From: Escherichia phage C119
Sequence record: NC_042046.1
Length of the DNA stretch: 47,319 nucleotides
Direction: 5' to 3' (one strand)
The translations under genes and the position numbers were made by a program. Below are positions 2,783 to 43,357 of the stretch, piece by piece. Position 1 is the first letter of the stretch. Each line of letters starts with the position of its first letter. The notes beneath the pieces were generated by a model. That model searched no databases. It saw only the letters and a list, made by a program, of their open reading frames with translations, and was not told where the DNA came from.

Positions 2783-3730
2783 ATGACTATCAAACTTGAC
2801 GCTTTCGAGCAAGAAAAGATCACTAACCACCTGCGAGCCATGGGCGTTGATAAGGCTGATGCAGCTGGTATCTGGACCGTGAAGCAGCTCACCGCAAGCC
2901 TGAATAAAGCTTACGAAACCGAGTACGACCAGAACTCCGTGGTAAACCTGTTCCCTGTAAGCAATGAAATTCCTGGCTACGCTAAGTACTTTGAGTATCC
3001 GGTATTTGATGGCGTTGGTATTGCTCAGATCGTGGCTGACTACACTGATGACCTGCCGCTGGTTGATGCTTTGGCAACTGAACGTCAGGGTAAAGTTTTC
3101 CGTTTCGGTAACGCGTTCCTGATTTCCATTGATGAAATTAAAGTTGGTCAGGCTACCGGTCAGTCTCTGTCTACTCGCAAGCAGTCTCTTGCTTTCGAAG
3201 CTCATGACAAGCTGCTTGATAAACTGGTGTGGTCCGGCTCTACTGCTCACGGCATCCCGAGTGTGTTCGACTACCCGAACATCAACAACGTTGTTAGCGG
3301 TGGTTCATGGTCTCAACCAACTACAGCAGTAAGCGATATTACAAGCCTGCTGGATATCATTGAGACTTCAACTAATGGTCAGCACCGTGCAACTCACCTG
3401 CTTCTGCCTACTACCGCCCGTCGTATTATGCAGAACCTGGTGCCTGGCACTTCTGTTAGCTACGGTGAGTTCTTCCGTCAGAACAATAGCGGCGTAACCG
3501 TTGAGTTCGTTCAGTACCTGAATGATTACAATGGCACTGGTACCTCTGCAGCTATCGCTTACGAGAAAGACCCTAACAACATGGCAATCGAGATTCCGGA
3601 AGCGACTAACGCACTGCCGGCTCAGCCGCGCGACTTGCACTTCCGTGTTCCGGTAACTTCTAAAGCAACCGGTTTGATCGTGTTTAGGCCTTTAACTATG
3701 GCTGTCATGAAGGGCATTACTTTTGCTTAA
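2783..3730 (+). CDS. Major capsid protein
   Basis: About 315 aa ORF in the canonical position after scaffold/decoration genes, followed by a strong hairpin plus T-tract terminator. Start is uncertain: in-frame candidates at 2744 (TTG), 2771 and 2783 (ATG); RBS AAAGGA at 2766-2770. Confidence 0.7.
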   Translation: MTIKLDAFEQEKITNHLRAMGVDKADAAGIWTVKQLTASLNKAYETEYDQNSVVNLFPVSNEIPGYAKYFEYPVFDGVGIAQIVADYTDDLPLVDALATERQGKVFRFGNAFLISIDEIKVGQATGQSLSTRKQSLAFEAHDKLLDKLVWSGSTAHGIPSVFDYPNINNVVSGGSWSQPTTAVSDITSLLDIIETSTNGQHRATHLLLPTTARRIMQNLVPGTSVSYGEFFRQNNSGVTVEFVQYLNDYNGTGTSAAIAYEKDPNNMAIEIPEATNALPAQPRDLHFRVPVTSKATGLIVFRPLTMAVMKGITFA

Positions 3731-3751
3731 TAGCACTTTTTGACAATGACA

Positions 3752-3778
3752 AGCACCCTTCGGGGTGCTATTTTTTTG
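3752..3778 (+). terminator. Rho-independent terminator after capsid gene
   Basis: agcacccttcggggtgct hairpin followed by T7 tract. Confidence 0.7.
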
Positions 3779-3800
3779 TCTAAAGAAAAGTGGAGGGGTT

Positions 3801-4331
3801 ATGATTAAGGTAAAAGACATAATTGATCTTATAAATGTTGATAGTGAAAGTGGGGTGATAACATGGAAGCTCAGGGATTCAGCGAGGCCTCAGTGGAATG
3901 CAAGGTTTGCCGGAAAGAGGGCAGGTAACGAGTTCCAGGTTAGAACTGGTGGAAAGTACAGAAGAATAAGGTTTACTGTTAACGGAGAGACGGCTACATT
4001 ATTGGAGCATAGGATGATCTGGGAATTTGTTAATGGTGAAATACCTGATGGGATGGAGATAGATCACATAGACAAAGACTCAACGAACAACTCAATATCA
4101 AACCTTAGGGTTTGCAACAGAGCTCAGAATAGCTCAAACAAGGATAGGCATGCTGACAATACATCTGGGTATAAAGGTGTATCATACTTTAAGCAAACCG
4201 ATAAGTTCAGGGCGAGAATAATGCATAATGGTAACGACATGCATATAGGTTACTTCGATACAGCTGAAGGCGCTCACCGGGCCTACATGTTAAAGCAGGC
4301 AGAGTTGTGCGGTGAGTTTGCTAGAGGGTAG
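3801..4331 (+). CDS. HNH homing endonuclease with AP2-like DNA-binding domain (copy 1)
   Basis: ATG 3801 after GGAGGGG RBS; motifs NGEIPDGMEIDHIDKD...NLRVCNRAQN (HNH) and SGYKGVSYFKQTDKFRARI (AP2-like); paralogous to ORFs at 21437 and 31791; free-standing between capsid and neck genes. Confidence 0.8.
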   Translation: MIKVKDIIDLINVDSESGVITWKLRDSARPQWNARFAGKRAGNEFQVRTGGKYRRIRFTVNGETATLLEHRMIWEFVNGEIPDGMEIDHIDKDSTNNSISNLRVCNRAQNSSNKDRHADNTSGYKGVSYFKQTDKFRARIMHNGNDMHIGYFDTAEGAHRAYMLKQAELCGEFARG

Positions 4332-7643: not shown

Positions 7644-10600
7644 ATGGCAGAATTTGCAGGTATCACACTTGGCGTTGACGTTCGCCAGGTTGACCAGGGC
7701 ACAAAGTCCCTGCAAGAATTTAAACGTGCCAATGAACAGGCGGCAGCTGGAGTTAGCGAGTTCGTTAATGCTGAGCTGGTTGCGAAGAATCAGGCTCGCG
7801 ACACTGCAAGGTATCTTTCTGAGCAGAGAAGTGCTTTTCAGTCGCTTCAGTCTGCAATTGATCCAACAGCTTCAAAATTGCGAAAACTTCAAGATGCAGC
7901 AAGTTCTCTTGATAAGGCCTTCTCCGCAGGGGTTGTTCCAGAGGCTGAGTTTTACAGGCTTGGTGAAGCATTAGAAACGCAAACAAATAGGTTAATAAGG
8001 TCTAGGTCAGCATTAACTGAGGAGGGTAGGGCGGCTATAGAAGCTGCAAAAAATAAAGAGTCCGCTGAGAGGCAAGCGCAATCATTTATTAGGTCGCTTC
8101 AAGCGCAGGCTGATGCAGCGACATTAAGTAGGGATGAGTTCTTAAAGTTAAGGGCGGCACAGCTTGGAGTTAGCGATCAGGCAGCACCAATAATAGATAG
8201 AATAACACAGGCATCAAGTAACAATACTAACGCTATAGCAAATCAAAGTAGGGCGTTTCAGGCGGCTGGGATATCGGCAGGTCAGTACAATCAGGCCTTA
8301 AGGTTCCTTCCTGTACAGATCAATGATATCACCAGCTCGATTGCTAACGGTATGCCTTTATTTATGGTGCTTACCCAGCAAATACCGCAGATTACAGATT
8401 CATTTGGTGGATTTTCAAATACATTATCAGCTGCGCAAGGTGCAGTTATAGATTATGTATCATCAATAGGAGAGCTGAGAAGTTCATTTGCTGATGTTAA
8501 GACTCTTGGTGATGAGGCTATCTTAAGGTTTGGTCGTGCTGCAACTATATTTGGTGGCGCGATAGTTGCTTCATTAGCTGTTCTTGGTAAAGCCGCTTAC
8601 GACTCATTTATTGAGGTTAGGCAACTTAATAACGCAATAATTGAAACTGGAAGGTCGTCGACTTTATCAGTTGCCGCTATCAAGGATTACGCTGATCAGC
8701 TAAATGAAACATCAAGGGCAACAAAAGGTTCTATTGGTGACATTTACCAGTCGCTAGTATCAAACGGAAGGCTTACTGTTAGTCAGATTAACTTAATCGC
8801 TAAGTCTGTTGCTAACCTTTCAGCTGTTAGTTCAAGGTCTGCGGAATCAATAATATCTGACTTTGATAAGATAGCAAAAGATCCAGTTAAGGGGCTGATA
8901 GAGTTAGATAAGCAATTTAACTTTCTTAGCGAAGGGCAGTTGACCCTAGTTAACAACCTAAAAGAAACGGAAGGGCAAACAGCAGCAGTAACAGCAGCTT
9001 TAGAAATATTTGCAGCTAGAAATGAGTCAGTTACAAAGCAGATTGAAGGCTCGCTTACACCTCTTGAATTGGCTTGGGGCGATTTCCGTAAGTTCGTTTC
9101 AGACACATGGGATGCTATAGGTGACAGGACTATAGGAGCTCTAAACCTATTTACTGACGTTATAGCTGCGACTATTGAGCGAATAAGACTGATAATTGGC
9201 ACTGGCGACAAGCTAATAAATGATTTCGTAATACGCGGAATAGAGGCGTTACAAAAGATACCAGGAGCATCTGGCGTTGGTAATGGAATAGCCGAACAAC
9301 TAAGGAAGGATAATGACGCAATAGAAAAGGAAAACATAAGGCTAGCTAAATCTATCGCTGATAGGGATGCAAGGGTTCGCAGGGGCGAGACTGGTTACTT
9401 GAGTGTTGGAGAGGGTTCAGAAAGTCAAACTGGAACTTCTGATAGAGATTCAGAATCAAGAAGAAAGGCTTTGGCCGATGAGATTAAAGCAATTGAGGAG
9501 AGAAGTAAAAAGACAAAATCTGGAGCAAAAGAAGAGAGGGATTTGACTATAAGTTATGAGTCTGGCGTTCTAGCTCTTCAGGCTCAGCTTAAGGTTCTTC
9601 AGGAGCACCGCCAGATTAGTGATGTTATCAGTAACGAACGCAAGCAGCTTTTTGCGGAGGAAGCTAAGTTTGCAATCCTTAATGAAAGGCTTGCAGACGG
9701 AACCATCACAAAGCAACAGCGATCATTACTGTTGCAGCAGGATAAAATCTTAGGACTTGCTCGCGAGAAGGCTGAGATTGGCGACCAGATTGTGCTGCAA
9801 GAAAGGGCCAATAAACTTCTTGATGACAACATCAAGAAGACTCGGCAGATTAACGCTGAAGCGGCATCAATTAGTGTTGGAGCAGGATTATCTCAGCGCG
9901 AAGCGGAAAGGCGGCGTGAGTTGGCGGCGCTAGAAGCCCAGCAAATTTCTAAAGGTGGCTCCGTAGATGACACTGACTTCCAGGCTTTACTTCAGGCTCG
10001 TCAGAATTTCTACAATCAGGAAGATGCATTACGTGGTAACTGGCTGGCTGGCGTTAAATCTGCGTTTGCTGAGACGGCTGATGAATTGGCAAACTTTAAT
10101 CAGATTGGTTCCGAGCTAGCCATGAGTGCCTTTAACGGATTGACTGACCAGATAACAAACCTGGTAACTACTGGAGAAGCTAGCTTCCGTGAGTTTACCG
10201 CATCGATTCTGAAGCAGATTGCACGCATTGCAACGCAGCTACTTTTAATTAAGGCGATTGAATCAACCATCTCCAGTTTTGGCGGTAGTGGTGGTGCAAT
10301 TGGCTCTATTGGTAGCGCATTTGGTTTCGCTTCTGGCGGTTATACTGGAAACGGTGGTAAGTACGAGCCAGCTGGCACGGTGCATAAAGGTGAATTCGTC
10401 TTTACGAAGGAGGCAACCTCAAGGATTGGCGTTGATAACCTTTATAAGTTAATGCGCGGATACGCAAATGGTGGAGTGGTTGGTGCTGGTCCTGGCTATG
10501 CGACTGGCGGGCTTGTTGGTGGAAGTAACGTTAATGTTGGTGGAGTGAATGTTACCGTTCAGACAGGTCTTGGCGGTGGTGGCGGTAATGACGCTAAACA

Positions 10601-11079: not shown

Positions 11080-11151
11080 ATAGCACTAATTGCTAAACAG
11101 AAATACCAAGGAAGGTTTACAATTAAAAAACTTAAACAAGAGGTGATTGAT

Positions 11152-13509: not shown

Positions 13510-16500
13510 ATGGCACAAATGGTTAAACAAACAACGAGGTTATATGATATGGCCGATTTGCCAAAGATTTATGGAAGCAAGGGTGGTAGCAAGAAGCCGC
13601 ACACACCTGTAGAGCAAGAAGATAACCTGATTTCACTAAACAAGATTAAGGTGCTACTGGCTGTAGCTGATGGAGAGGTTGATTCTAGTTTCTCGCTCAA
13701 GGATGTTTACCTTGCTGACGTTCCGGTGCAAAACCAGGATAACTCATTCAACTATGAAGGTGTTACGGCAGAGTTTAGGTCTGGTACTCAGTCGCAGGAT
13801 TACATCGCAGGACTAGATGGCGCAGCTTCAGAGATTCAGGTTAGTCGTGAAATCAATAATGACACACCTTATATCATCGCAGTCAACAACAGTCAGCTAT
13901 CAGCAATTCGAGTCAAGCTGTTCTGGCCTCGACTCGTTAAGCAAGAAGAGAATGGAGATTTAAATGGCACAACATGTGAATATGCAATCGATTTATCAGT
14001 TAATGGCTCAGCGTACACTGAGTATATCAGAGGCGTGGCTAACGGTAAAACTACAACAGGTTACGACCGCAGTATCAGGGTTAACTTACCAGCCGAGTTT
14101 AGCAGCGCTCTTGTTCGTATTAGGAAGTTAACGCCAGACTCAACAAATAGCACCCTGGTTAACGGGATGCAGATCACAACCTATCAGGAAGTAATCGATG
14201 CTAAATTCCGCTACCCTCTTACGGCACTTGTTTACGTGGAGTTCAGTTCTGACCTGTTCCCTAACGGGATCCCAACTATAGCCATTAAGAAAAAGTGGAA
14301 ACTTATCCGCGTACCGACAAACTACAATCCAGAGACAAGGGCTTATAGCGGCACATGGAATGGAACTTTTAAAATGGCATGGTCTGACAACCCGGCCTGG
14401 GTTTTATATGATCTGGTGGTTAGTCAGCGCTACGGATTGGATCAGCGAGAGCTTGGTGTAGAGATTGATAAGTGGGGTCTGTATGAAGCAGCGCAATTCT
14501 GCGACCAGATGGTTCCTGATGGTAAGGGTGGAATGGAGCCGCGATATACTTGTAACGTTGTCATTCAGCAGAAAGTGGAAGCGTATCAGCTTATTCGTGA
14601 CATCTGTTCTATCTTCCGCGGTTTAACCTTCTATGATGGTGAGCAAATCGGGATTGTTGTAGACAGGCCGCGCCAGCCAAGCTATGTGTTCACTAATGAT
14701 AACGTTGTTGATGGATTGTTTAACAGGACATTCTCTAGCGACAAGAGCCTTTACACGACAGCCAACGTTCAGTTTGATGACGAGCAGAACAACTACCAGC
14801 AGGATGTCGAGCCAGTATTCGACTTAGAAGCAACACGCCGATTTGGTTACAACCCTGTAGACTTGACTGCAATTGGCTGCGTAAGGCGAAGCGAGGCTAA
14901 CCGTCGCGGGCGTTGGTTGCTGAAAACAAACCTTCGCAGTGAAACGGTAACGTTCACAACTGGCCTCGAAGGCATGATTCCTATGATTGGTGATGTAATT
15001 GCCGTTAATGACCAGGCTTGGTCAAGCAACTACACATTAAACCTTTCGGGTCGAATTGTTGAAGCTACAGGTTTGCAGGTGTTCGTGCCATTCGCTATTG
15101 ATGCTGACCCTGGCGACAGGATTTTAATCAACAAGCCAGATGGGAGCCCAGAGTACAGGACTATCGCTTCAGTATCTGCCGATAAGTTGACGCTTGAACT
15201 GAATACAGCATTCAGCTTCACACCTCAGCCGGATACGGTATTTGCAATCGACAAGCAGAATCTGGCGTTGCAGCAATACGTTGTGACAGGAATTCAAAAA
15301 GCAAACACGGACGGCGAGGATTCATTCCAGTACAGCATCACTGCGGTGCAGTATGACCCGAACAAGTATGACGAGATTGACTATGGTGTGAATATTGACG
15401 ACAGGCCAACAAGTATCGTTGACCCTGACAGGATTTTACCACCTGAAAATATCACCGTTACTAGTTACAGCAAGGTAGTTCAGGGCTTAAGCGTTGAGAC
15501 GATGGTTATTGGTTACGACAAGGTGCAGTATGCGAAAACATACAACGTACAGTGGCGCAAGAATAACGGCAACTGGATTAACGTACCTGAGACAGCTAAT
15601 ACCGAGGTTGATATTGAAGGCATTTACGCTGGCATCTACGACGTCAGGGTTCGCGCCGTAACTGACCAGAAATCAGTGTCGGCATGGTCAGATATCACGA
15701 CAGTTAGCCTGACTGGCAAGATTGGGGAACCTTCGGAGCCGCCTGTAATTACGGCTTCTGATGATGAGGTTTTCGGGATTAGGGTTAAGTGGGGCTTCCC
15801 TACTGACTCAGCTGATACCGCTTACACCGAGCTTCAGCAGGTTCCTGATAATGGTGACGGAACATATACACCGGAGAACGCGTCACTGCTTACGCTGGTT
15901 CCGTATCCTCAATACGAATATTGGCACACCACTCTACCAGCAGGTAACGTGAGGTGGTACAGGGCCAGGATTATTGACAGGATAGGTAACGTATCTCCGT
16001 GGACTGATTTTGTCAGAGGTATGGCATCCGATGATGTAAGTGCGATCATTGGTGACATCAAGGTTGATATCGAAAACTCTGATGGTTACAAGTATCTTCT
16101 CCAGAACGCCATTGATGCAAATACTGACATCCAGAATCAGGCCGAAGCTATAATCGAGAACGCCCTGGCAAATGATACTGACGTACGCGTTATGACAAAG
16201 GAGAATCTTAACAGGAAGGCGGAATATCGCCAGGCAGTAAGTTTGATTGCTGATGAAACTCAGGCCCGTGTGGACGCTCTCACGCAGCTTAAAGCGCAGA
16301 TTGATGATGAGATTGTTGGTCAGATTACGACAATTGAAACCGCACTTGCTACGGAGACCGAAGCCAGGGCTACAGCTGATACTCAATTAAGCTCAAGGCT
16401 TGGTGATAACGAGGCGGCTTTGAATCAGAAGCTTGACTCTTATGCCACGGTCGAAGGTGTTGGTGTTCAGTACGGCGTTAAGCTCGGCCTGAAGTACAAT

Positions 16501-18173: not shown

Positions 18174-18356
18174 TTTGTATTCCTTAGTCAGTATGTTTCG
18201 TTTCGATGGAGTAACTATAGCAAAGGCTTCTGCTGTAGTCTTTAGCAAATCGTGCTATTTTATATACGCGTAACCGATGTAACTCGATGTATACAATCTC
18301 ATCCGCTGAAAATTGTATACGCTTTTTACGCGAAGATACGCATTAGTTACATTTAT

Positions 18357-18424
18357 AAATCCTTATATAATAAGGGTTTAGAGTATTATTATTATTATAT
18401 ATATTACTATGTATATCTTGTAAC
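18357..18424. repeat. AT-rich element copy A with (TTA)n microsatellite
   Basis: aaatccttatataataagggtttagagtattattattattatatatattactatg...; near-identical to the element at 38617-38686; lies in a divergent intergenic region. Confidence 0.8.
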
Positions 18425-21436: not shown

Positions 21437-21931
21437 ATGAATTGGGACAAATACTTTGATATCGTGGATGGTAAGCTGGTGTGGAAGTATAGAGAAGAGA
21501 TGCGGCCACAGTGGAACGCAAGATATCAAGGAAAAGAGGCAGGAGCGATAAGGAATGGATACCTTCAGACCGAAATCAATGGGAAGTGTTATTTTTGCCA
21601 TAGAATTATGTGGGAAATGATTAACGGTCGTATACCGGATGGAATGTGCATAGACCACTTGAATCACAAGAGAGATGATAACAGGATTGAAAATCTTAGA
21701 GTTGTATCTCATCAAGATAATTGCAAGAATCAGAGCTTGCGATTGAAAAATAAATCAGGAGTATCGGGAGTTTACTGGAATAAGAAAGCAAATAAGTGGC
21801 TAGCTCAAATAAGTATAAAAGGAAAAAGAAAGCATGTTGGTTTCTTTTTATCAATATCTGACGCTGAGAATGCGATAAAACAAGCAAGAAAAGAAAATCT
21901 TTACCACGAAAATCATTGCTCTAATATTTGA
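21437..21931 (+). CDS. HNH homing endonuclease with AP2-like domain (copy 2)
   Basis: NGRIPDGMCIDHLNHKRDDNRIENLRVVSHQDNCKNQ (HNH) and SGVSGVYWNKKANKWLAQI (AP2-like); N-terminus MNWDKYFDIVDGKLVW parallels copy 3. Confidence 0.8.
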   Translation: MNWDKYFDIVDGKLVWKYREEMRPQWNARYQGKEAGAIRNGYLQTEINGKCYFCHRIMWEMINGRIPDGMCIDHLNHKRDDNRIENLRVVSHQDNCKNQSLRLKNKSGVSGVYWNKKANKWLAQISIKGKRKHVGFFLSISDAENAIKQARKENLYHENHCSNI

Positions 21932-31790: not shown

Positions 31791-32282
31791 ATGAATTGGA
31801 ATGATTTTCTCGAATATAGAGATGGAAAGCTTTACTGGACAGATCCACACTCAACAAAATTTAAGCCAGGGGATGAGGCTGGATGTAGGCATCATAGGGG
31901 TTATCATTATATAAGGAGATATAAAACCACGATGTCAAGGCATAGGATAGTATGGACAATGTTTAATGGAGAGATACCGGAAGGCATGGAGATTGATCAC
32001 ATAGACCATGACGTTGAGAATGATCGGATTGAAAACCTAAGAATGGTTACAAGGAGGCAGAACAATCAAAACAAAAAGCTAGATGAAAGAAATACTAGCG
32101 GACATGTTGGGGTTAGTTGGAACAAGAAGGCAAACAAATGGAGAGCAATGATAGGTATAAAGGGTAATGACGGGAAGCGGAAAACGGTATATGTTTATTA
32201 TGGTGACTCTTTCGACGACGCGGTATTGGCAAGGAAGAAAGCTGAATCTGAATACTCATTTCATGAAAATCACGGAAAATAG
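31791..32282 (+). CDS. HNH homing endonuclease with AP2-like domain (copy 3)
   Basis: NGEIPEGMEIDHIDHDVENDRIENLRMVTRRQNNQNK and SGHVGVSWNKKANKWRAMI; GAGGAGG RBS; stop TAG is the TAG of a cassette motif. Confidence 0.8.
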   Translation: MNWNDFLEYRDGKLYWTDPHSTKFKPGDEAGCRHHRGYHYIRRYKTTMSRHRIVWTMFNGEIPEGMEIDHIDHDVENDRIENLRMVTRRQNNQNKKLDERNTSGHVGVSWNKKANKWRAMIGIKGNDGKRKTVYVYYGDSFDDAVLARKKAESEYSFHENHGK

Positions 32283-38616: not shown

Positions 38617-38686
38617 TAAATCCCTTATATAACAACCATTTAGATTTATTATTATTATTATTATTATATATGTTATTCCGTAACCA
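38617..38686. repeat. AT-rich element copy B with (TTA)7 microsatellite
   Basis: aaatcccttatataacaaccatttagatttattattattattattatatatgttattccgtaacc; direct repeat of the element at 18357-18424. Confidence 0.8.
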
Positions 38687-38941
38687 TGATTATCTGAGAT
38701 ATTGGTGATATTTTTTGATATTGCGCGGCGCATAAAGATTTAGATAAAGAGATAGGGATGCAAGCGGGGTGGCGAAAATGGCTTAACATACCATAACGGC
38801 AATAACAGCCTTGATACGACTAGCGTCAGCATGTAACAATTTAGCATAACGTGCGATTACCGAGTTGAACGTGTAAATAACGCTTGCGACATTCACCAAT
38901 CATGGTAAGATGCTCTCACACCAAACGAGAGGAGTAGTAAA

Positions 38942-39457
38942 ATGAGTAATACAATTCGTGAAGCAAACCCGACACTTGGCGACCTGGTGCGGCACCTTGT
39001 TAAGATGGCTCTTAATTCAGAGGATGGAAGCGTAACAGTTCCCGTTAAGTTGCTTTACAAGAATCTTTACGGAGAAATTGATAACGACTATGTAGCAGCT
39101 GACTTTAGACCTGGCGGCAAATATTCACTTCCAAAGCTTAAGGCTTCCTATGTTTCAAATACAGCCAGCAGAATGCAGGAAGTTAAAGACGCAGATAAGC
39201 GCGCAAGGTTCTCTTGTGGAGAGATGGAGTATAATGGTGATGAGCATTATTGCGTAAAAATCACAATGGTCAACGGTGCTGTTAAGAATGGAACCCGAGC
39301 TAAGACAAACAGTCAATTAGAGGAGAAAGCGGTAAGCGAGTTTAAAGCTAGGCTACTTAAGCTTTCCCCCAGCGTAGCAGGAATGAGTGGAGATGAACTG
39401 AAGGGTGCGGTAGCTATGATTAACGCATATCAGGAAATGATTAAGGAGACTAAATAA
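38942..39457 (+). CDS. Hypothetical protein (171 aa)
   Basis: ATG 38942 with GAGGAG RBS; first gene of the rightward operon after the 650-bp noncoding region. Confidence 0.6.
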   Translation: MSNTIREANPTLGDLVRHLVKMALNSEDGSVTVPVKLLYKNLYGEIDNDYVAADFRPGGKYSLPKLKASYVSNTASRMQEVKDADKRARFSCGEMEYNGDEHYCVKITMVNGAVKNGTRAKTNSQLEEKAVSEFKARLLKLSPSVAGMSGDELKGAVAMINAYQEMIKETK

Positions 39458-40017
39458 TGTTTGATTTCAACGAGGATAAGTTAACTGATGACCAGGTGAT
39501 GGAAGTCGCCAGGCAAGATAACCTGCCGCCACTTCGTGTGGCAATCAGTACTAATGGATACCGCCAATCATTCAATTTCTGGCCCAGCGCCGAAGAGATG
39601 CTGTGCGTCAAGTTGAGCTACAAATACGGTGTCGTAGTTAGCAGGATTAGCCGCCATGGCTGGAATGGAGTGGTTGGCATTCGATCTCTATACGAGGCAA
39701 TACGAAATGTCCAGCCATTCGTCGGGCGCGAAGGGATTATGCATGACCTGACAAATAACATCATCCCAGAACTACAAGAGGCGGGAATTGTTTGCCTCAT
39801 TGGCGATAAGATTTATGTTCATCCGGCCCTGGTTGAGATGGATAAGGACGACGTGCAAAACTGGTGCAGTCAGTGCCGATCCGACGTGCCACGCTCAAAC
39901 TACGTGCCACCGCAAACAACAATCCATGGCTATAATGCCGATGAGGTGGAGAAGGCCATACAGTTCTACCGGAAAGCGAAAGCTCTCCCGAATGGTGAAT
40001 ATAGCACAAATTGCTAA
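39457..40017 (+). CDS. Truncated paralog (186 aa) of the 529-aa NTPase-like protein, lacking the central P-loop core
   Basis: N-terminus MFDFNEDKLTDDQVMEVARQDNLPPLRVAISTNGYRQS and C-terminal block VVGIRSLYEAIRNVQPF...CLIGDKIYVHP align to the ends of the 34468-36057 product; AAGGAG RBS; stop inside a cassette motif. Confidence 0.65.
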   Translation: MFDFNEDKLTDDQVMEVARQDNLPPLRVAISTNGYRQSFNFWPSAEEMLCVKLSYKYGVVVSRISRHGWNGVVGIRSLYEAIRNVQPFVGREGIMHDLTNNIIPELQEAGIVCLIGDKIYVHPALVEMDKDDVQNWCSQCRSDVPRSNYVPPQTTIHGYNADEVEKAIQFYRKAKALPNGEYSTNC

Positions 40018-40074
40018 ACAATAAATTGGGTAGTCAGCTATGATTACCCTATCAACAACAAAGAGGAAATAACC

Positions 40075-40305
40075 ATGAAAGCTGTAATTATTGAAGGTTT
40101 CGCAGGCGCTCGCACAGAGGTGTCAACCTCAGTACATTACGAAGGCATCGTGAGTATTGATATCAACTTCGGTAACCATGGCGACGGATGTGCGCTTGCT
40201 CACTATACTGCCTACCAAGCGCGCAAACTGGCGGCGGCGCTTATTCAGGCGGCTGAGGGGATTGAGAATGGTAAGGGTTACACTGGTCGGCGTAGAAGCG
40301 AGTAA
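40075..40305 (+). CDS. Hypothetical protein (76 aa)
   Basis: ATG after a complete cassette (39998-40074). Confidence 0.55.
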   Translation: MKAVIIEGFAGARTEVSTSVHYEGIVSIDINFGNHGDGCALAHYTAYQARKLAAALIQAAEGIENGKGYTGRRRSE

Positions 40306-40355
40306 ATTCAGTATCATAATTGAAGCAAATGACAACTAAACGATAGGAAGCTAAC

Positions 40356-40589
40356 ATGATTACCATTAACCTTTCAGAAGAGCATGCTGCCGAGATTAGG
40401 GCTATACTAATGCATTGCCTTAGCCGCAAGATGTTTAGCGCGTCAGAATCGCTTACAGAGGTTGTAAATCAGATTCGAAATCAGGAGTTTGAAGATATAC
40501 TGCCGTGGGAAGAGGACTTGGCCTGGCTTGAGTACGAGCAGATTTGCACGGCACTATCAGGCTGCCAACTGGCTAGCCAATACAAGTGA
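40356..40589 (+). CDS. Hypothetical protein (77 aa)
   Basis: AGGAAG RBS. Confidence 0.5.
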   Translation: MITINLSEEHAAEIRAILMHCLSRKMFSASESLTEVVNQIRNQEFEDILPWEEDLAWLEYEQICTALSGCQLASQYK

Positions 40590-40707
40590 CAATCTACGAA
40601 CACAAATTCAGCAGCAGGGGTATCGATATGCTCCTGCATTACGTAGACGAGAGATACGCCATGTTAATGCAGAAGACGCATGGCGGCACAATAACGAGGA
40701 TTGAGAT

Positions 40708-40869
40708 ATGAGCTTGAATTTTTTTAAAACTAGCATAATTGAAGTTGATGAGGCAGTTTACTTTCACGAAAATCACGGATTCGACACCGAATGCCTTGCT
40801 GATGAGGGTATGGTACTTATTGTTGAGCGAGATGAGTTTTCAGAAAACGTAAAATGGAGTGAAAAATAA
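40708..40869 (+). CDS. Hypothetical protein (53 aa)
   Basis: ATG 40708 after ACGAGGA; TAATG overlap with the next gene. Confidence 0.4.
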   Translation: MSLNFFKTSIIEVDEAVYFHENHGFDTECLADEGMVLIVERDEFSENVKWSEK

Positions 40870-41120
40870 TGAGCAAGTACAACCGACAGATTGTTGGGCT
40901 GAATGGTAAAGTAACAACCATTGATGTATATCGGGTTCTGGATGCATTCCAGGTAACTGACCCCGCAACTCAACACGCCATTAAGAAAATGCTTTGTAGT
41001 GGGTTGCGTGGGCACAAGGACTATTTAACAGACCTTGATGAAGCTATTGAGTCGCTTAATAAGGCTTATGAACTTCGAAAGCAGCGTGATGAGCTTGGAT
41101 ATGTTTATTTCAGTAAATAG
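40869..41120 (+). CDS. Hypothetical protein (83 aa)
   Basis: ORF-track ORF; stop TAG is the TAG of the cassette motif at 41115-41134. Confidence 0.55.
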   Translation: MSKYNRQIVGLNGKVTTIDVYRVLDAFQVTDPATQHAIKKMLCSGLRGHKDYLTDLDEAIESLNKAYELRKQRDELGYVYFSK

Positions 41121-41192
41121 CACAAATTGCTAAACATCCATCGCAAGGATGCGTTACCATTACTTTATCGAAATTAGACGAGGAAAGATTAA

Positions 41193-41321
41193 ATGTGTGG
41201 ATATGATGAGTTGCCAAGTGAATGGTGTAAAAAAATGATGGATGAGGCTAAAGATGGGGATGAAGTAATGGCGTACTTTGAGTTGATGAACATGTGGCGC
41301 GAACGTGAGGAGAAGAAATGA
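41193..41321 (+). CDS. Hypothetical small protein (42 aa)
   Basis: ATG after cassette leader, GAGGAAAG RBS; ATGA-coupled to the next ORF. Confidence 0.4.
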   Translation: MCGYDELPSEWCKKMMDEAKDGDEVMAYFELMNMWREREEKK

Positions 41322-41611
41322 AAATTAACGTATTCACTGGCAACTTATTGGCAGCCAACGATTCTGAGGGTGGAGACGGCAAGCGAGCAATTCATATGTG
41401 GAGTAAGAAACAAACAATGAGGCGCATATCTATTGATGAGGCAATTAAAATTGGTAGCTTCGTTTGCTTGTGGGTATGTGATGGTGAGCTTCAAGCGGAA
41501 CAGGTTAGGAATGGTTACGTATATACTGGATATGATGAATATGACGATGAGAGAGAATTGTTTCAGCCTGCATTTTATCTCGACGCTGAATTTTACATCG
41601 CTGGAGAATAA
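41318..41611 (+). CDS. Hypothetical protein (97 aa)
   Basis: ORF-track ORF. Confidence 0.55.
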   Translation: MKINVFTGNLLAANDSEGGDGKRAIHMWSKKQTMRRISIDEAIKIGSFVCLWVCDGELQAEQVRNGYVYTGYDEYDDERELFQPAFYLDAEFYIAGE

Positions 41612-41614
41612 CCC

Positions 41615-41749
41615 ATGATATGGATTCACACGTACTACACTGGCAAGTTCAATAGCGTAATGCACAAACGAGTGTATGACAGCTATGAAGCGGCAAAGGC
41701 ACAGCAGGCAGTCCTGGGTGGCGATATTCAATCTTACAAGAAGGCTTAA
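41615..41749 (+). CDS. Hypothetical small protein (44 aa)
   Basis: ATG 41615 after GGAGA. Confidence 0.35.
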   Translation: MIWIHTYYTGKFNSVMHKRVYDSYEAAKAQQAVLGGDIQSYKKA

Positions 41750-41751
41750 TC

Positions 41752-41991
41752 ATGTTCGGACTTACTCAACCACAATTTAATGCAGTTCGCGCCCAAGCTA
41801 AGAAACTTAACGAGGCGGTGGATAAGCTGACAAGCAAGCAGAAGCAGGATAATGACATCATGAAGGCGATTATCTGTGAGTTTCATAGCCCAGTCAGTAC
41901 AATCATCGAGAAGATGAAGTTTGTTTGGGTTGCAGGCTATCTTGCTGGTCGCGTAGGTAAGCGTGAAGATGGGGAGCAGATTTATGACTAA
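41752..41991 (+). CDS. Hypothetical protein (79 aa)
   Basis: ORF-track ORF. Confidence 0.5.
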   Translation: MFGLTQPQFNAVRAQAKKLNEAVDKLTSKQKQDNDIMKAIICEFHSPVSTIIEKMKFVWVAGYLAGRVGKREDGEQIYD

Positions 41992-42178
41992 ATCACTAGG
42001 GAAAGTCAGATGTATTGTGTCTTACAATGATAAGAAGTTCAAAACTGGTAAATCTTACAGCATTTTGTCATCACCCGCATATGGTTGGGTTAAATGTGAG
42101 TCAGAAGATGGGTGTATAGAGATGGTTAAAGATGGCATTGACATTGAGTTTGGTTACTTTGAGGTATTTTATGACTGA
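41984..42178 (+). CDS. Hypothetical protein (64 aa, Cys-containing)
   Basis: ATG 41984 overlapping the upstream stop (ORF track begins at GTG 41963). Confidence 0.45.
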   Translation: MTKSLGKVRCIVSYNDKKFKTGKSYSILSSPAYGWVKCESEDGCIEMVKDGIDIEFGYFEVFYD

Positions 42179-42464
42179 GCTATCAATCTGGTTCCTGGCT
42201 GGCATGTTGACGTGGATTTATTTCGTCGTCATGGCTTGACGAAAATGTTAAAAGTGGTTAGTATTAACCACGTAGACGGCAATGACCGTAACGCGCATCG
42301 CGGAGATGCAAGCCGATAGCCGGGCTGGATAAAGATACGAGGCAAATAAAACCGCAGTTAGACATTGAGAACTTCGCGAAGCGAACCAATCAATGCAGTA
42401 AGTCGGGCTTGACATTCCGAGGATTGTGAAACCTCCCCGCATTCGGTAAGCGGGACTCATTCTA

Positions 42465-42540
42465 GTTCTGCTGGCGTAACAGGATAACGCAGAGACCTCC
42501 TAAGTCTCAGTTACTGGTTCGAGTCCAGTGCGGAACACCA
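42465..42540 (+). tRNA. tRNA-Arg (anticodon CCU, reads AGG) with encoded CCA
   Basis: Hand-folded cloverleaf: acceptor gttctgc/gcggaac (7 bp, one G-U), D-arm gcgt-aacaggata-acgc, anticodon arm gagac-ctCCTaa-gtctc (U33, A37 present), 4-nt variable loop, T-arm actgg-TTCGAGT-ccagt, discriminator A, CCA. Confidence 0.75.
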
Positions 42541-42556
42541 AACATGGAGCATCCTA

Positions 42557-42742
42557 GTGAATAACTACGAAGTCCGTTTAACTTCCCGCCTAATGGGTCG
42601 GCAATGCAAATCTTGCCAGCAATCCTACGAAGGTAGGTTCATTGCTAAAAGCCCTGAAGAAGCAGTTGCAGCCGCAAAGGCAGCATTTAAGATTGACCTG
42701 ACAGTCCACAAAGTCAGCGTTGATAAAGTATCCCTCGTTTGA
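42557..42742 (+). CDS. Hypothetical protein (61 aa, CxxC)
   Basis: GTG start with GGAG RBS; followed by a strong terminator. Confidence 0.45.
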   Translation: MNNYEVRLTSRLMGRQCKSCQQSYEGRFIAKSPEEAVAAAKAAFKIDLTVHKVSVDKVSLV

Positions 42743-42769: not shown

Positions 42770-42795
42770 TGCCCTCCTTGTGAGGGCTTTTTTTC
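42770..42795 (+). terminator. Rho-independent terminator upstream of terS
   Basis: gccctccttgtgagggc followed by T7; then TACAAT -10-like and AGGAGG RBS for terS. Confidence 0.75.
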
Positions 42796-42841: not shown

Positions 42842-43357
42842 ATGTCAGAAGAGAAAAAAATTCACCAGAAGATTGGTAACTTCAAGGAGCTTTACAATAA
42901 GAAGTATGGCGACATTGCCAATCTTAAGATTAACCACAGATACACTCCCGAGCAGGTATTCGACATGGCTGTAAGGTATTTCAGCTGGGCTGAAGAGCAG
43001 GCAATTAAAGCTATCGAGACAGCAAGCTTTCAGGGTGTCGTAACGGAAAACCTTGTTCACAAGCCGAGGGTATTTACGATAACTGGATTCCAGCTTTTCT
43101 GCGGCGTTGGTCATAATGCTATTAGCAAATGGCGCTCATCACCAGGATTCGATGAAGTTATGGAGTTCGTCGACTCAGTTATCTTTGAACAGAAGTACCA
43201 GTTGGGTGTTAACAACATCGTCAACCCTGGACTTATTAGCAAAGACCTTGGCATCGATAAGCCGCAAGAGGTTAACATCAACAACGCTTCTAATGCTGTA
43301 GTAAACGACGAGGAAGCAATGAAGTCTGCTCTGGCTTCTGTAATGGATAAACTATGA
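42842..43357 (+). CDS. Terminase small subunit
   Basis: 171 aa ORF immediately upstream of, and ATGA-coupled to, the large terminase gene. Confidence 0.65.
   Translation: MSEEKKIHQKIGNFKELYNKKYGDIANLKINHRYTPEQVFDMAVRYFSWAEEQAIKAIETASFQGVVTENLVHKPRVFTITGFQLFCGVGHNAISKWRSSPGFDEVMEFVDSVIFEQKYQLGVNNIVNPGLISKDLGIDKPQEVNINNASNAVVNDEEAMKSALASVMDKL

Follow-up and report, generated by a model that had tools for sequence, protein, structure and literature searches.

Small-gene arms of T1-like phages

T1-like phages are notorious contaminants of laboratories and fermentations, and are candidate agents for the biocontrol of O157. In T1 itself, 26 small rightward open reading frames (ORFs; ST77-ST55), with six copies of a repeat among them, lie between the terminal-repeat end and TerS, on the same strand as TerS. 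The same 21-nucleotide (nt) repeat is interspersed among the genes of the corresponding arm of Rtp (rtp1-rtp17). Approximately half of T1 proteins, mostly the products of small ORFs, are without a determined function (PMC13164509). Here we analyze the counterpart of this arm in Escherichia phage C119, a rightward array of small ORFs at positions 40075-42178 of sequence record NC_042046.1. All coordinates refer to the whole stretch analyzed, which has a length of 47,319 nt and is called the window below.

We consider it probable on balance that the array consists of eleven genuine small coding genes (ORFs A to K), which form two polycistronic blocks in the accessory or 'early' arm of a T1-like phage and encode modulators of the host or of the phage. 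The array is syntenic with T1 ST77-ST55 and corresponds to genes gp02-gp11 of phiKP26, all annotated as 'hypothetical protein' or 'putative fusion protein'. These genes are thus already present in public records and in PHROG families, and the observation of an array here, while correct, is an ordinary one. Because the genes have been deposited, with their functions left blank, the array itself is of low interest. The comparison with relatives is of use for curation, as it fixes the frame at 40586-40711, adds a conserved gene for a 22-amino acid (aa) membrane peptide (K), and removes the misleading labels 'fusion protein', 'ATPase', 'CopG' and 'terminase', which spread among relatives. It also separates core genes from cargo, and so points to C, F, H, I, K and the E domain as the tiny proteins with which experiments should begin. 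A promoter and a covarying RNA immediately downstream of the array are perhaps the more useful lead, since they could offer a handle on the control of late transcription.

The closest relatives of C119 are T1-like siphoviruses (Drexlerviridae, Rogunavirinae, genus Rogunavirus). A stretch of ~4 kb around the array is 99-100% identical to phiKP26 and phiJLA23, and 95-97% identical to JK06, BECP10, UDF157lw and the AHP, AHS and AKS phages. The array region and phiKP26 share 99.7% identity, and over 40030-42470 the only mismatches fall on N in the phiKP26 record. Orthologs in identical gene order, at 95-100% identity, are found in phiKP26, phiJLA23, JK06 (JK_42-45) and Rogue1 (gp05-gp12), as well as in AHP24, AHP42, AHS24, AKS96, BECP10 and UDF157lw. 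ORF K is unannotated in phiKP26 and in the other relatives whose annotation was examined. The arms of T1 and Rtp, by contrast, are longer, carry genes for polynucleotide kinase (PNK) and HNH endonuclease that are lacking in the C119 array, and have no counterpart of A, D, G or J. Rtp does have orthologs of E (rtp5), F (rtp12), H (rtp9) and I (rtp15). According to the annotation of Rogue1, H is related to T1p04, which lies in the leftward cluster at the right end of T1.

Densely packed, coupled tiny ORFs close to a genome end are also seen in the T4 early clusters, in class I of T7 and among pre-early genes of the T5 type (PMC13250531). The genes in these clusters are often toxic or host-directed, and most have no assigned function. 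The resemblance is one of presumed mode of action, and no homology to them was found, except that the annotator of Rogue1 likened G to T5 ORF017.

Coding potential of the array

Ten ORFs of 41-97 aa lie on the plus strand within 40075-42178, and the eleventh, K, starts inside this range. Plus-strand ORFs with 40 or more aa occupy 93% of 40075-42239. In 1000 dinucleotide shuffles of this sequence, coverage averaged 36% (standard deviation 12%, maximum 75%), and none of the 1000 reached the real value. Each of the ten ORFs A to J matches a PHROG family, and all of these families are of 'unknown function'.

We compared each ORF codon by codon with the homologous arm of 14 annotated relatives from Rogunavirinae and Braunvirinae, which together with the C119 window make up the 15 phages referred to below. 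Ratios of nonsynonymous to synonymous change (pN/pS) were summed over relatives, with TerS (0.06) as a benchmark. The values are lowest for F (0.12), G (0.14), H (0.15) and C (0.18), and intermediate for E (0.26), I (0.28), D (0.30, from a single diverged homolog in e4/1c with 60% aa identity) and B (0.36). A gives 0.47 overall and 0.26 against Bas02, and J gives 0.62, from a small number of substitutions, with 0.38 against e4/1c. Variable alignment columns at codon positions 1, 2 and 3 number 13, 8 and 29 for A; 10, 5 and 9 for J; and 3, 1 and 9 for K. These patterns indicate purifying selection in the called frames, and on such comparative evidence it is unlikely that 9-10 of the 11 ORFs go untranslated.

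The first-pass annotation had left the competing frames at 40575-40707 undecided. All 15 phages keep the frame of ORF C open, with 83-100% aa identity in all 14 relatives, including the Braunvirinae Rtp, Bas01 and Bas02. The rival frame, 40489-40704, contains in-frame stop codons in eight of the 15 (Opt79, Sd1, Sf12, e4/1c, Rtp, Bas01, Bas02 and Phagiculus), which rules it out as a gene. Taken together, these two results settle the ambiguity in favor of C.

ORF K (42171-42239, + strand) encodes a hydrophobic peptide of 22 aa, MTELSIWFLAGMLTWIYFVVMA, with a grand average of hydropathy of +1.57. Its ATG overlaps the J stop codon (ATGACTGA), it has a GAGGT Shine-Dalgarno match, and its stop codon sits within the -35 box of the downstream promoter. 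Changes in K across Rogunavirinae are mostly synonymous. Sd1, Sf12, phiEB49, Opt79 and e4/1c retain it, also in cases in which I or another gene takes the place of J upstream. A different tiny membrane-like ORF (MFEIIICLAIPVVLWIILDYVAAKKEY) is inserted between H and I in Sd1.

Gene order, coupling and repeat cassettes

All eleven ORFs are on the plus strand. ORF A (40075-40305, 76 aa; phiKP26 gp02, phrog_13316), with an AGGA Shine-Dalgarno match, is followed by B (40356-40589, 77 aa; gp03, Pfam DUF7180) and by C (40586-40711, 41 aa; gp04), whose GTG start overlaps the B stop. Next are D (40708-40869, 53 aa; gp05) and E (40869-41120, 83 aa; gp06, the rtp5 homolog). The second group begins with F (41193-41321, 42 aa; gp07, phrog_1312, the rtp12 homolog) and continues with G (41318-41611, 97 aa; gp08, JK_42), H (41615-41749, 44 aa; gp09, labeled 'putative fusion protein'), I (41752-41991, 79 aa; gp10, phrog_303, the rtp15 homolog), J (41984-42178, 64 aa; gp11, phrog_10885) and K. 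The products of B, D, F and G are acidic, with isoelectric points of 4.3-4.6.

Most of these genes abut or overlap. The B/C junction is GTGA, those of C/D and F/G are ATGA, and that of D/E is TAATG. G and H are separated by 3 nt and H and I by 2 nt, and I and J overlap by 8 nt in a junction of the ATGACTxA type (ATGACTAA). Every start in the array except that of C is preceded, at a spacing of 5-9 nt, by a Shine-Dalgarno core of 4 nt or more; C relies on the GTGA overlap with the B stop. Within a block, ribosomes would pass from gene to gene by way of such overlapping or abutting stop and start codons.

The Drexlerviridae repeat ATAGCACnnnTTGnTAAA is located 74 and 76 nt upstream of the start codons of A and F (copies at 40001 and 41117). 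A 21-nt direct repeat, aaATAGCACnnnTTGnTAAAA, is known from TLS, T1, Rtp and Rogue1, where it lies ~76 nt upstream of start codons, oriented along transcription, and has been proposed to be a stoperator, an enhancer or an UP element (PMC11447400). Both array copies agree with this published definition in their spacing to ATG and in orientation. The sequence GCACAAATTGCTAAACA is perfect at 40004 and 41120, and with up to three mismatches it has eight copies in the window, compared with 0.27 expected. Copies of the strict motif number at least 11 in the window, on the plus strand at 11080, 26667, 29063, 29748, 30434, 32279, 40001 and 41117, and on the minus strand at 18258, 37506 and 38341. Degenerate copies occur as well, for example, near 13510, 18616, 20675, 36350 and 36550.

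The repeat is part of a unit of ~66 nt that consists of the repeat, a spacer, a TATAGT-like hexamer at a fixed distance and a conserved leader (TACTYCATCGAAACGAAA). Within the spacer there is often a GATG box together with a short hairpin whose sequence is particular to each copy. The first array cassette (39997-40062, + strand) has ATAGCACAAATTGCTAAA at 40001, a -10-like TATGAT at the fixed distance and the conserved leader, and precedes ORF A. The second (41113-41178, + strand) has ATAGCACAAATTGCTAAA at 41117 and a -10-like TACCAT, and precedes ORF F. The Rogunavirinae loci examined all have one copy after the 186-aa gene (U2 homolog) and another after the E homolog. No terminator-like site was found within 40000-42700. 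The simplest reading of this arrangement is that of two cassette-led polycistronic units, A-E and F-K, and the cassettes may act as promoters for early expression of the two blocks.

Many ORFs in this phage family, such as that at 39457-40017 and those of several E homologs, end in ...STNC*. Their reading frames run into the repeat (ATAGCACAAATTGCTAA) and are closed by its TAA; the shared C-terminus is an artifact of the DNA motif rather than a protein motif.

The genes lie within a longer run of rightward ORFs (38942-42239) that is followed by a tRNA, a small ORF at 42557 and TerS at 42842. This arm begins at 38942 with a 171-aa DUF7174 protein and continues with a 186-aa phrog_7327 protein (39457-40017). 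The picture drawn by the first-pass annotation, of some ten small rightward ORFs upstream of the tRNA and packaging genes, with coupling through ATGA and TAATG and two members directly after cassette copies, holds in each of these respects; the coupled junctions extend to the GTGA of B/C. Its range of 40075-42178 does contain ten ORFs, but begins well inside the arm and misses K. The CxxC pairs that it ascribed to a few of the products are absent from the range: the sole CxxC (CKSC) is in ORF 42557, outside it, while G carries CxxxC and J carries Cx5C. Its statement that no catalytic motif is recognizable agrees with our searches, in that no ORF of the array has a catalytic domain in Pfam or NCBIfam. 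These sensitive hidden Markov model (HMM) searches gave only DUF7180 (ORF B, Pfam), nothing from NCBIfam, and the PHROG families of unknown function.

Core genes and cargo

C, F, H and I have homologs in 14 of 14 relatives, including Rtp, Bas01 and Bas02. E has homologs in 12 of 14, among them Rtp, and was not detected in Bas01 or Bas02. Judged by the codon comparison, C, E, F, H, I and K make up a core that purifying selection maintains across subfamilies. A, D, G and J, as their distribution indicates, are patchy, swappable cargo at sites where genes are exchanged at exact gene boundaries; the cargo found at such sites in relatives includes a P-loop NTPase, an HNH endonuclease and tiny membrane peptides. 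A is an accessory gene that is present in JK06 and AHP42 and has diverged homologs in Bas01 and Bas02. D marks a swap site between C and E, with unrelated occupants in Rogue1 (gp06/07), Sf12 (gp70) and Bas01/02 (the P-loop NTPase). G is found at full length in 17 records by tblastn, all from Rogunavirus, and its N-terminal 24-31 aa alone are common to different genes in phiEB49, Sf12 and e4/1c. J is confined to Rogunavirus.

Among the core genes, F shows 59-98% aa identity across its relatives. I is the most widespread, with 825 phage records by tblastn, from Klebsiella, Escherichia, Shigella, Salmonella and other hosts, all of them annotated 'hypothetical'. The annotation of Rtp likens rtp15, the I homolog, to T1 gp59.

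H and I have been taken for a single gene. Rogue1 gp11 joins them through one extra T (GATATTTCAATC versus GATATTCAATC), which explains the 'fusion protein' label on phiKP26 gp09 and gp10. The TAA stop of H is kept in every other phage examined (11 more loci), and in Sd1 and phiEB49 the conserved GGCTTAAT..ATG junction has taken up a whole extra gene, which separates H from I. Because the extra T is found in Rogue1 only, because TAA is kept elsewhere and because of these insertions, H and I are separate genes, and a single fusion gene or programmed read-through is ruled out.

B has homologs in 14 of 14 relatives, with an invariant N-terminus, MITINLSEExA, and matches Pfam DUF7180 at 30.6 bits (cutoff 27). 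This N-terminus is suggestive of a ribbon-helix-helix (CopG/Arc) repressor, yet the assignment lacks statistical support. A profile of B had no matches among PDB sequences, and hhalign gave a probability of 1.7% against a CopG sequence entered by hand. The 'CopG' label given to B in UDF157lw is thus unsupported.

An acidic tail of the form ...EW.DD(I/L)PW ends several unrelated proteins of the arm, namely the Bas01/02 P-loop NTPases and Sd1 gp68 (positions 3198-3815, 3008-3622 and 2339-2674 of loci L007, L008 and L003, respectively). B has an internal FEDILPW at residues 45-51. The C-terminal tip of E. coli SSB is DDDIPF, and the acidic DD(I/L)PW tails may mimic this SSB-interaction motif.

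ORF E and its domain family

E aligns only with the C-terminal part of several PHROG profiles that are 181-253 positions long. A profile search with E against 1.84 billion representative sequences returned 4417 clusters at E ≤ 1e-3, in which the domain either stands alone or forms the C-terminus of proteins of 140-380 aa. On this evidence, E is a stand-alone copy of a very large and widespread phage domain family for which Pfam has no model; neither the domain, its N-terminal extensions nor any of 42 family members matched Pfam.

A shallow alignment was insufficient for structure prediction with AlphaFold2, giving a predicted local distance difference test (pLDDT) score of 66. With a diverse, deeper alignment, the model has a pLDDT of 91 and consists of a beta-hairpin and three helices. 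A Foldseek search of BFVD with this model found SaV-like, DUF3310 and 'nucleotide kinase' models (E 8e-3 to 4e-2, TM 0.53-0.69), which rank behind closer uncharacterized relatives. No solved structure was matched by E, and because there is none the likeness compares one prediction with another.

DUF3310 is a domain of the T7 gp1.7 nucleotide kinase and of the lactococcal phage protein SaV. The latter is an early, toxic protein and a determinant of AbiV sensitivity, and DUF3310 genes were cytotoxic in mycobacteriophage screens. Like these proteins, E occupies a place among early or accessory phage genes, is small, and occurs alone or fused; it differs from them in being only 83 aa long, with no kinase motif shown. 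The DUF3310 HMM (PF11753) matched neither E nor any of the 42 family members, even at E ≤ 1. We thus reject E as a true member of Pfam DUF3310, while its predicted structure resembles the DUF3310/SaV group at the level of the fold.

Other labels attached to this family are annotation noise. 'ATPase' is found on the E homologs of Sd1, Sf12 and Opt-79 and on phrog_17613, and neither a Walker A motif nor a Pfam NTPase is present in E or in the full-length phrog_17613 members P0125, P0183 and P0130. 'Terminase' and 'S24e' are equally to be discarded, and the TPR-like matches of E in the PDB are due to a single-helix motif.

Function and alternative explanations

If the array belongs to an early arm, as synteny with T1 leads us to infer, its products are probably small binders or modulators that act on host or phage processes soon after infection. 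Candidate roles are host takeover, support of nucleotide or DNA metabolism, and counter-defense. They are presumably not parts of the virion, and no ORF of the array matched a virion or packaging family in PHROG, Pfam or NCBIfam.

Several points weigh against this view of the array. The term 'early' rests on synteny with T1 and on analogy with other virulent phages; a literature search for a transcriptome or proteome time course in Rogunavirus, or for gene functions in T1-like phages, found nothing specific. The array is on the terminase strand, directly upstream of the terminase genes, such that late co-transcription is possible. The cassettes have poor geometry for sigma70, reading either TAAACA-18-TATGAT/TACCAT or TTGCTA with a 22-nt spacer (TAAANN-18-TATAGT or TTGCTA with a 22-nt spacer in the general unit), which suggests a phage-modified promoter or another regulatory role. 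Published interpretation of the repeat is likewise divided among stoperator, enhancer and UP element (PMC11447400). Searches of Pfam, NCBIfam, PDB sequences and folds yielded no function for any ORF. Finally, J has the weakest coding support of the set, and the coding support for D comes from its one diverged homolog.

The array might instead be an island of counter-defense or 'moron' cargo, that is, mainly a hot spot of small inhibitors of host immunity such as restriction, abortive infection (Abi) and toxin-antitoxin systems, rather than a module for host takeover or metabolism. This idea is partly compatible with host-directed modulators, and we regard it as possible, if rather doubtful. 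The exchange of accessory slots at exact gene boundaries fits it, as does the occurrence, in the same arm of relatives, of a T4 Stp-like peptide (rtp6) and of a UDF157lw ORF labeled 'antirestriction protein'. Several products (B, D, F and G) are small and acidic, and proteins with an E-like fold include SaV, with its role in AbiV sensitivity. However, the best-conserved members, C, F, H and I, belong to the core across subfamilies as well as hosts, as illustrated by the many records for I, which is unusual for strain-specific cargo. Moreover, none of the ORFs matches a known anti-defense family in Pfam, and in UDF157lw the terms 'antirestriction' and 'CopG' are no more than unverified annotation.

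A second alternative draws on position: the ORFs might be late accessory genes that are transcribed together with ORF 42557, TerS and TerL, and that have a role in packaging or morphogenesis. In its favor are the shared strand and immediate proximity to TerS and TerL and the absence of a detected intrinsic terminator within 40000-42700. Nevertheless, a separate, strongly conserved promoter, a structured leader and a tRNA intervene between K and the packaging genes, a terminator-like hairpin (42771-42787) stands ahead of TerS, and the lack of any match to head, tail or packaging families in PHROG or Pfam speaks against such a role. The accessory members also differ among phages whose TerS proteins are 94-99% identical, and we judge this explanation to be quite unlikely. 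Less plausible by far is that the array is mostly non-coding or decayed, with chance frames or fragments such as C, D and E as remnants of the P-loop NTPase of Bas01/02 or of a PNK. The ORFs are very short, E corresponds to merely the C-terminal third of its long PHROG profiles, and in other phages the stretch that matches C at the nucleotide level is annotated as 'polynucleotide kinase' or 'P-loop NTPase'. This reading is largely refuted by the purifying selection seen in each called frame, by an ORF coverage far beyond that of shuffles, and by the many clusters in which E-type domains stand alone. In Bas01 and Bas02, furthermore, the C homolog is a separate 43-aa ORF upstream of the NTPase (bas01_0068 and bas02_0066), and neither the Bas01/02 NTPase nor the Rtp PNK had a tblastn match to the window. 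We continue to favor eleven genuine small genes in two blocks of an accessory arm.

A promoter and double-hairpin RNA upstream of tRNA-Arg

The 3' boundary of the array is formed by a promoter and non-coding leader (42236-42464, + strand). The promoter is sigma70-like, with TTGACG-17-TAGTAT at 42236-42264, and is followed by ~190 nt of non-coding leader. The block 42236-42348 shows almost no variation among phages that diverge by 15-25% in their coding DNA. At least four subfamilies are represented among the ten phages that keep a promoter at this position, with a conserved initial sequence (TAACCACGTAGAC type) after it. At its 3' end, directly upstream of tRNA-Arg (CCU; 42465-42540, + strand; ARAGORN, and Rfam tRNA at 57.6 bits), the leader contains two adjacent hairpins (42419-42454).

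Hairpin 1 has the stem GAGG/CCTC and the loop ATTGTGAAA, and hairpin 2 has the stem CCCGC/GCGGG and the loop ATTCGGTAA. Both loops are 9 nt long and invariant (ATTGTGAAA and ATTCSGTAA), whereas the stems vary: stem 1 is GAGC/GCTC, AGGC/GCCT, GGGC/GCCC or GUCG/CGAC in other lineages, and stem 2 is GCCGG/CCGGC. Among 13 distinct sequences, aligned by fitting to the model, all 117 of 117 pair cells are standard, six of the nine pairs show compensatory double changes, and no one-sided changes occur; slid controls of the alignment were 14-44% paired. When IMG/VR was scanned with a pattern of the loops only, true instances had perfect stems, while 11 distinct chance matches (17 matches) formed 0-3 of 4 and 1-3 of 5 pairs. 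A possible additional pseudoknot of 2 bp would pair 42417-18 with loop 2.

A covariance model places the element directly 5' of a tRNA in Bas01 and Bas02. T1 has a match too (E 4e-5), located in the tRNA-less gap between ST58 and ST57, and some IMG/VR contigs carry the element, again without a tRNA, immediately ahead of a homolog of ORF 42557. It is thus distributed over Rogunavirinae, Braunvirinae, T1 and other Drexlerviridae. An Rfam scan of the hairpin region gave no family match for the element.

The small ORF 42557 lies between the element and the terminator-like hairpin that precedes TerS. In T1, roughly a dozen terminators are annotated along the late region, and a terminator is annotated at 8322. 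In having a promoter followed by a structured RNA, a terminator and late genes, the region is reminiscent of lambda PR'-qut-tR' and HK022 put, and put likewise has two adjacent stem-loops just downstream of a promoter and upstream of terminators; we offer the parallel as a hypothesis only. To our knowledge, phages of the Drexlerviridae type are without a known antiterminator, sigma factor or RNA polymerase. The hairpins may have a regulatory role in cis, perhaps in antitermination or processing, at their place ahead of the packaging genes. A bolder proposal would combine this RNA with the array: C, F, H, I and K would be new host-directed effectors, and the cis RNA, in a manner like HK022 put or lambda qut/6S, would enable read-through of late terminators and thereby the switch from early to late expression. 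We think this combined proposal unlikely.

Other interpretations of the leader were considered. The block at 42240-42350 does not form a significantly stable global fold (z = -1.09). Its interpretation as a decayed HNH ORF is not supported, as its conservation stops after 13 nt in other subfamilies. A packaging (pac) site is also unlikely here, as T1 synteny puts the packaging end at the divergent region upstream of the arm. Two gene calls fall on the leader and are probably spurious: phiKP26 gp12 (70 aa, - strand, 42248-42460) lies entirely on the conserved leader and hairpins, and the same non-coding gap also holds Rogue1 gp13 (40 aa, + strand), immediately before the tRNA.

Other features of the window

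AT-rich TATTATTATTAT... tracts are present at 38640-38690 and 18384-18413. They belong to the intergenic region from which the leftward array and the rightward arm diverge, and synteny with the terminal-repeat end of T1 makes this region the likely neighborhood of the pac site or of the genome ends.

A long run of 9-nt repeats (GGTCCNGCA type, a family of 19 copies) at 1576-2212 encodes collagen-like Gly-X-Y repeats within a large ORF that is presumably a tail-fiber gene. Three paralogous HNH-endonuclease-like segments (..IDHID..) are found at 4007-4079, 21598-21670 and 31940-32012, and HNH genes occur at varying positions in relatives, including within the small-ORF arm of Sf12.

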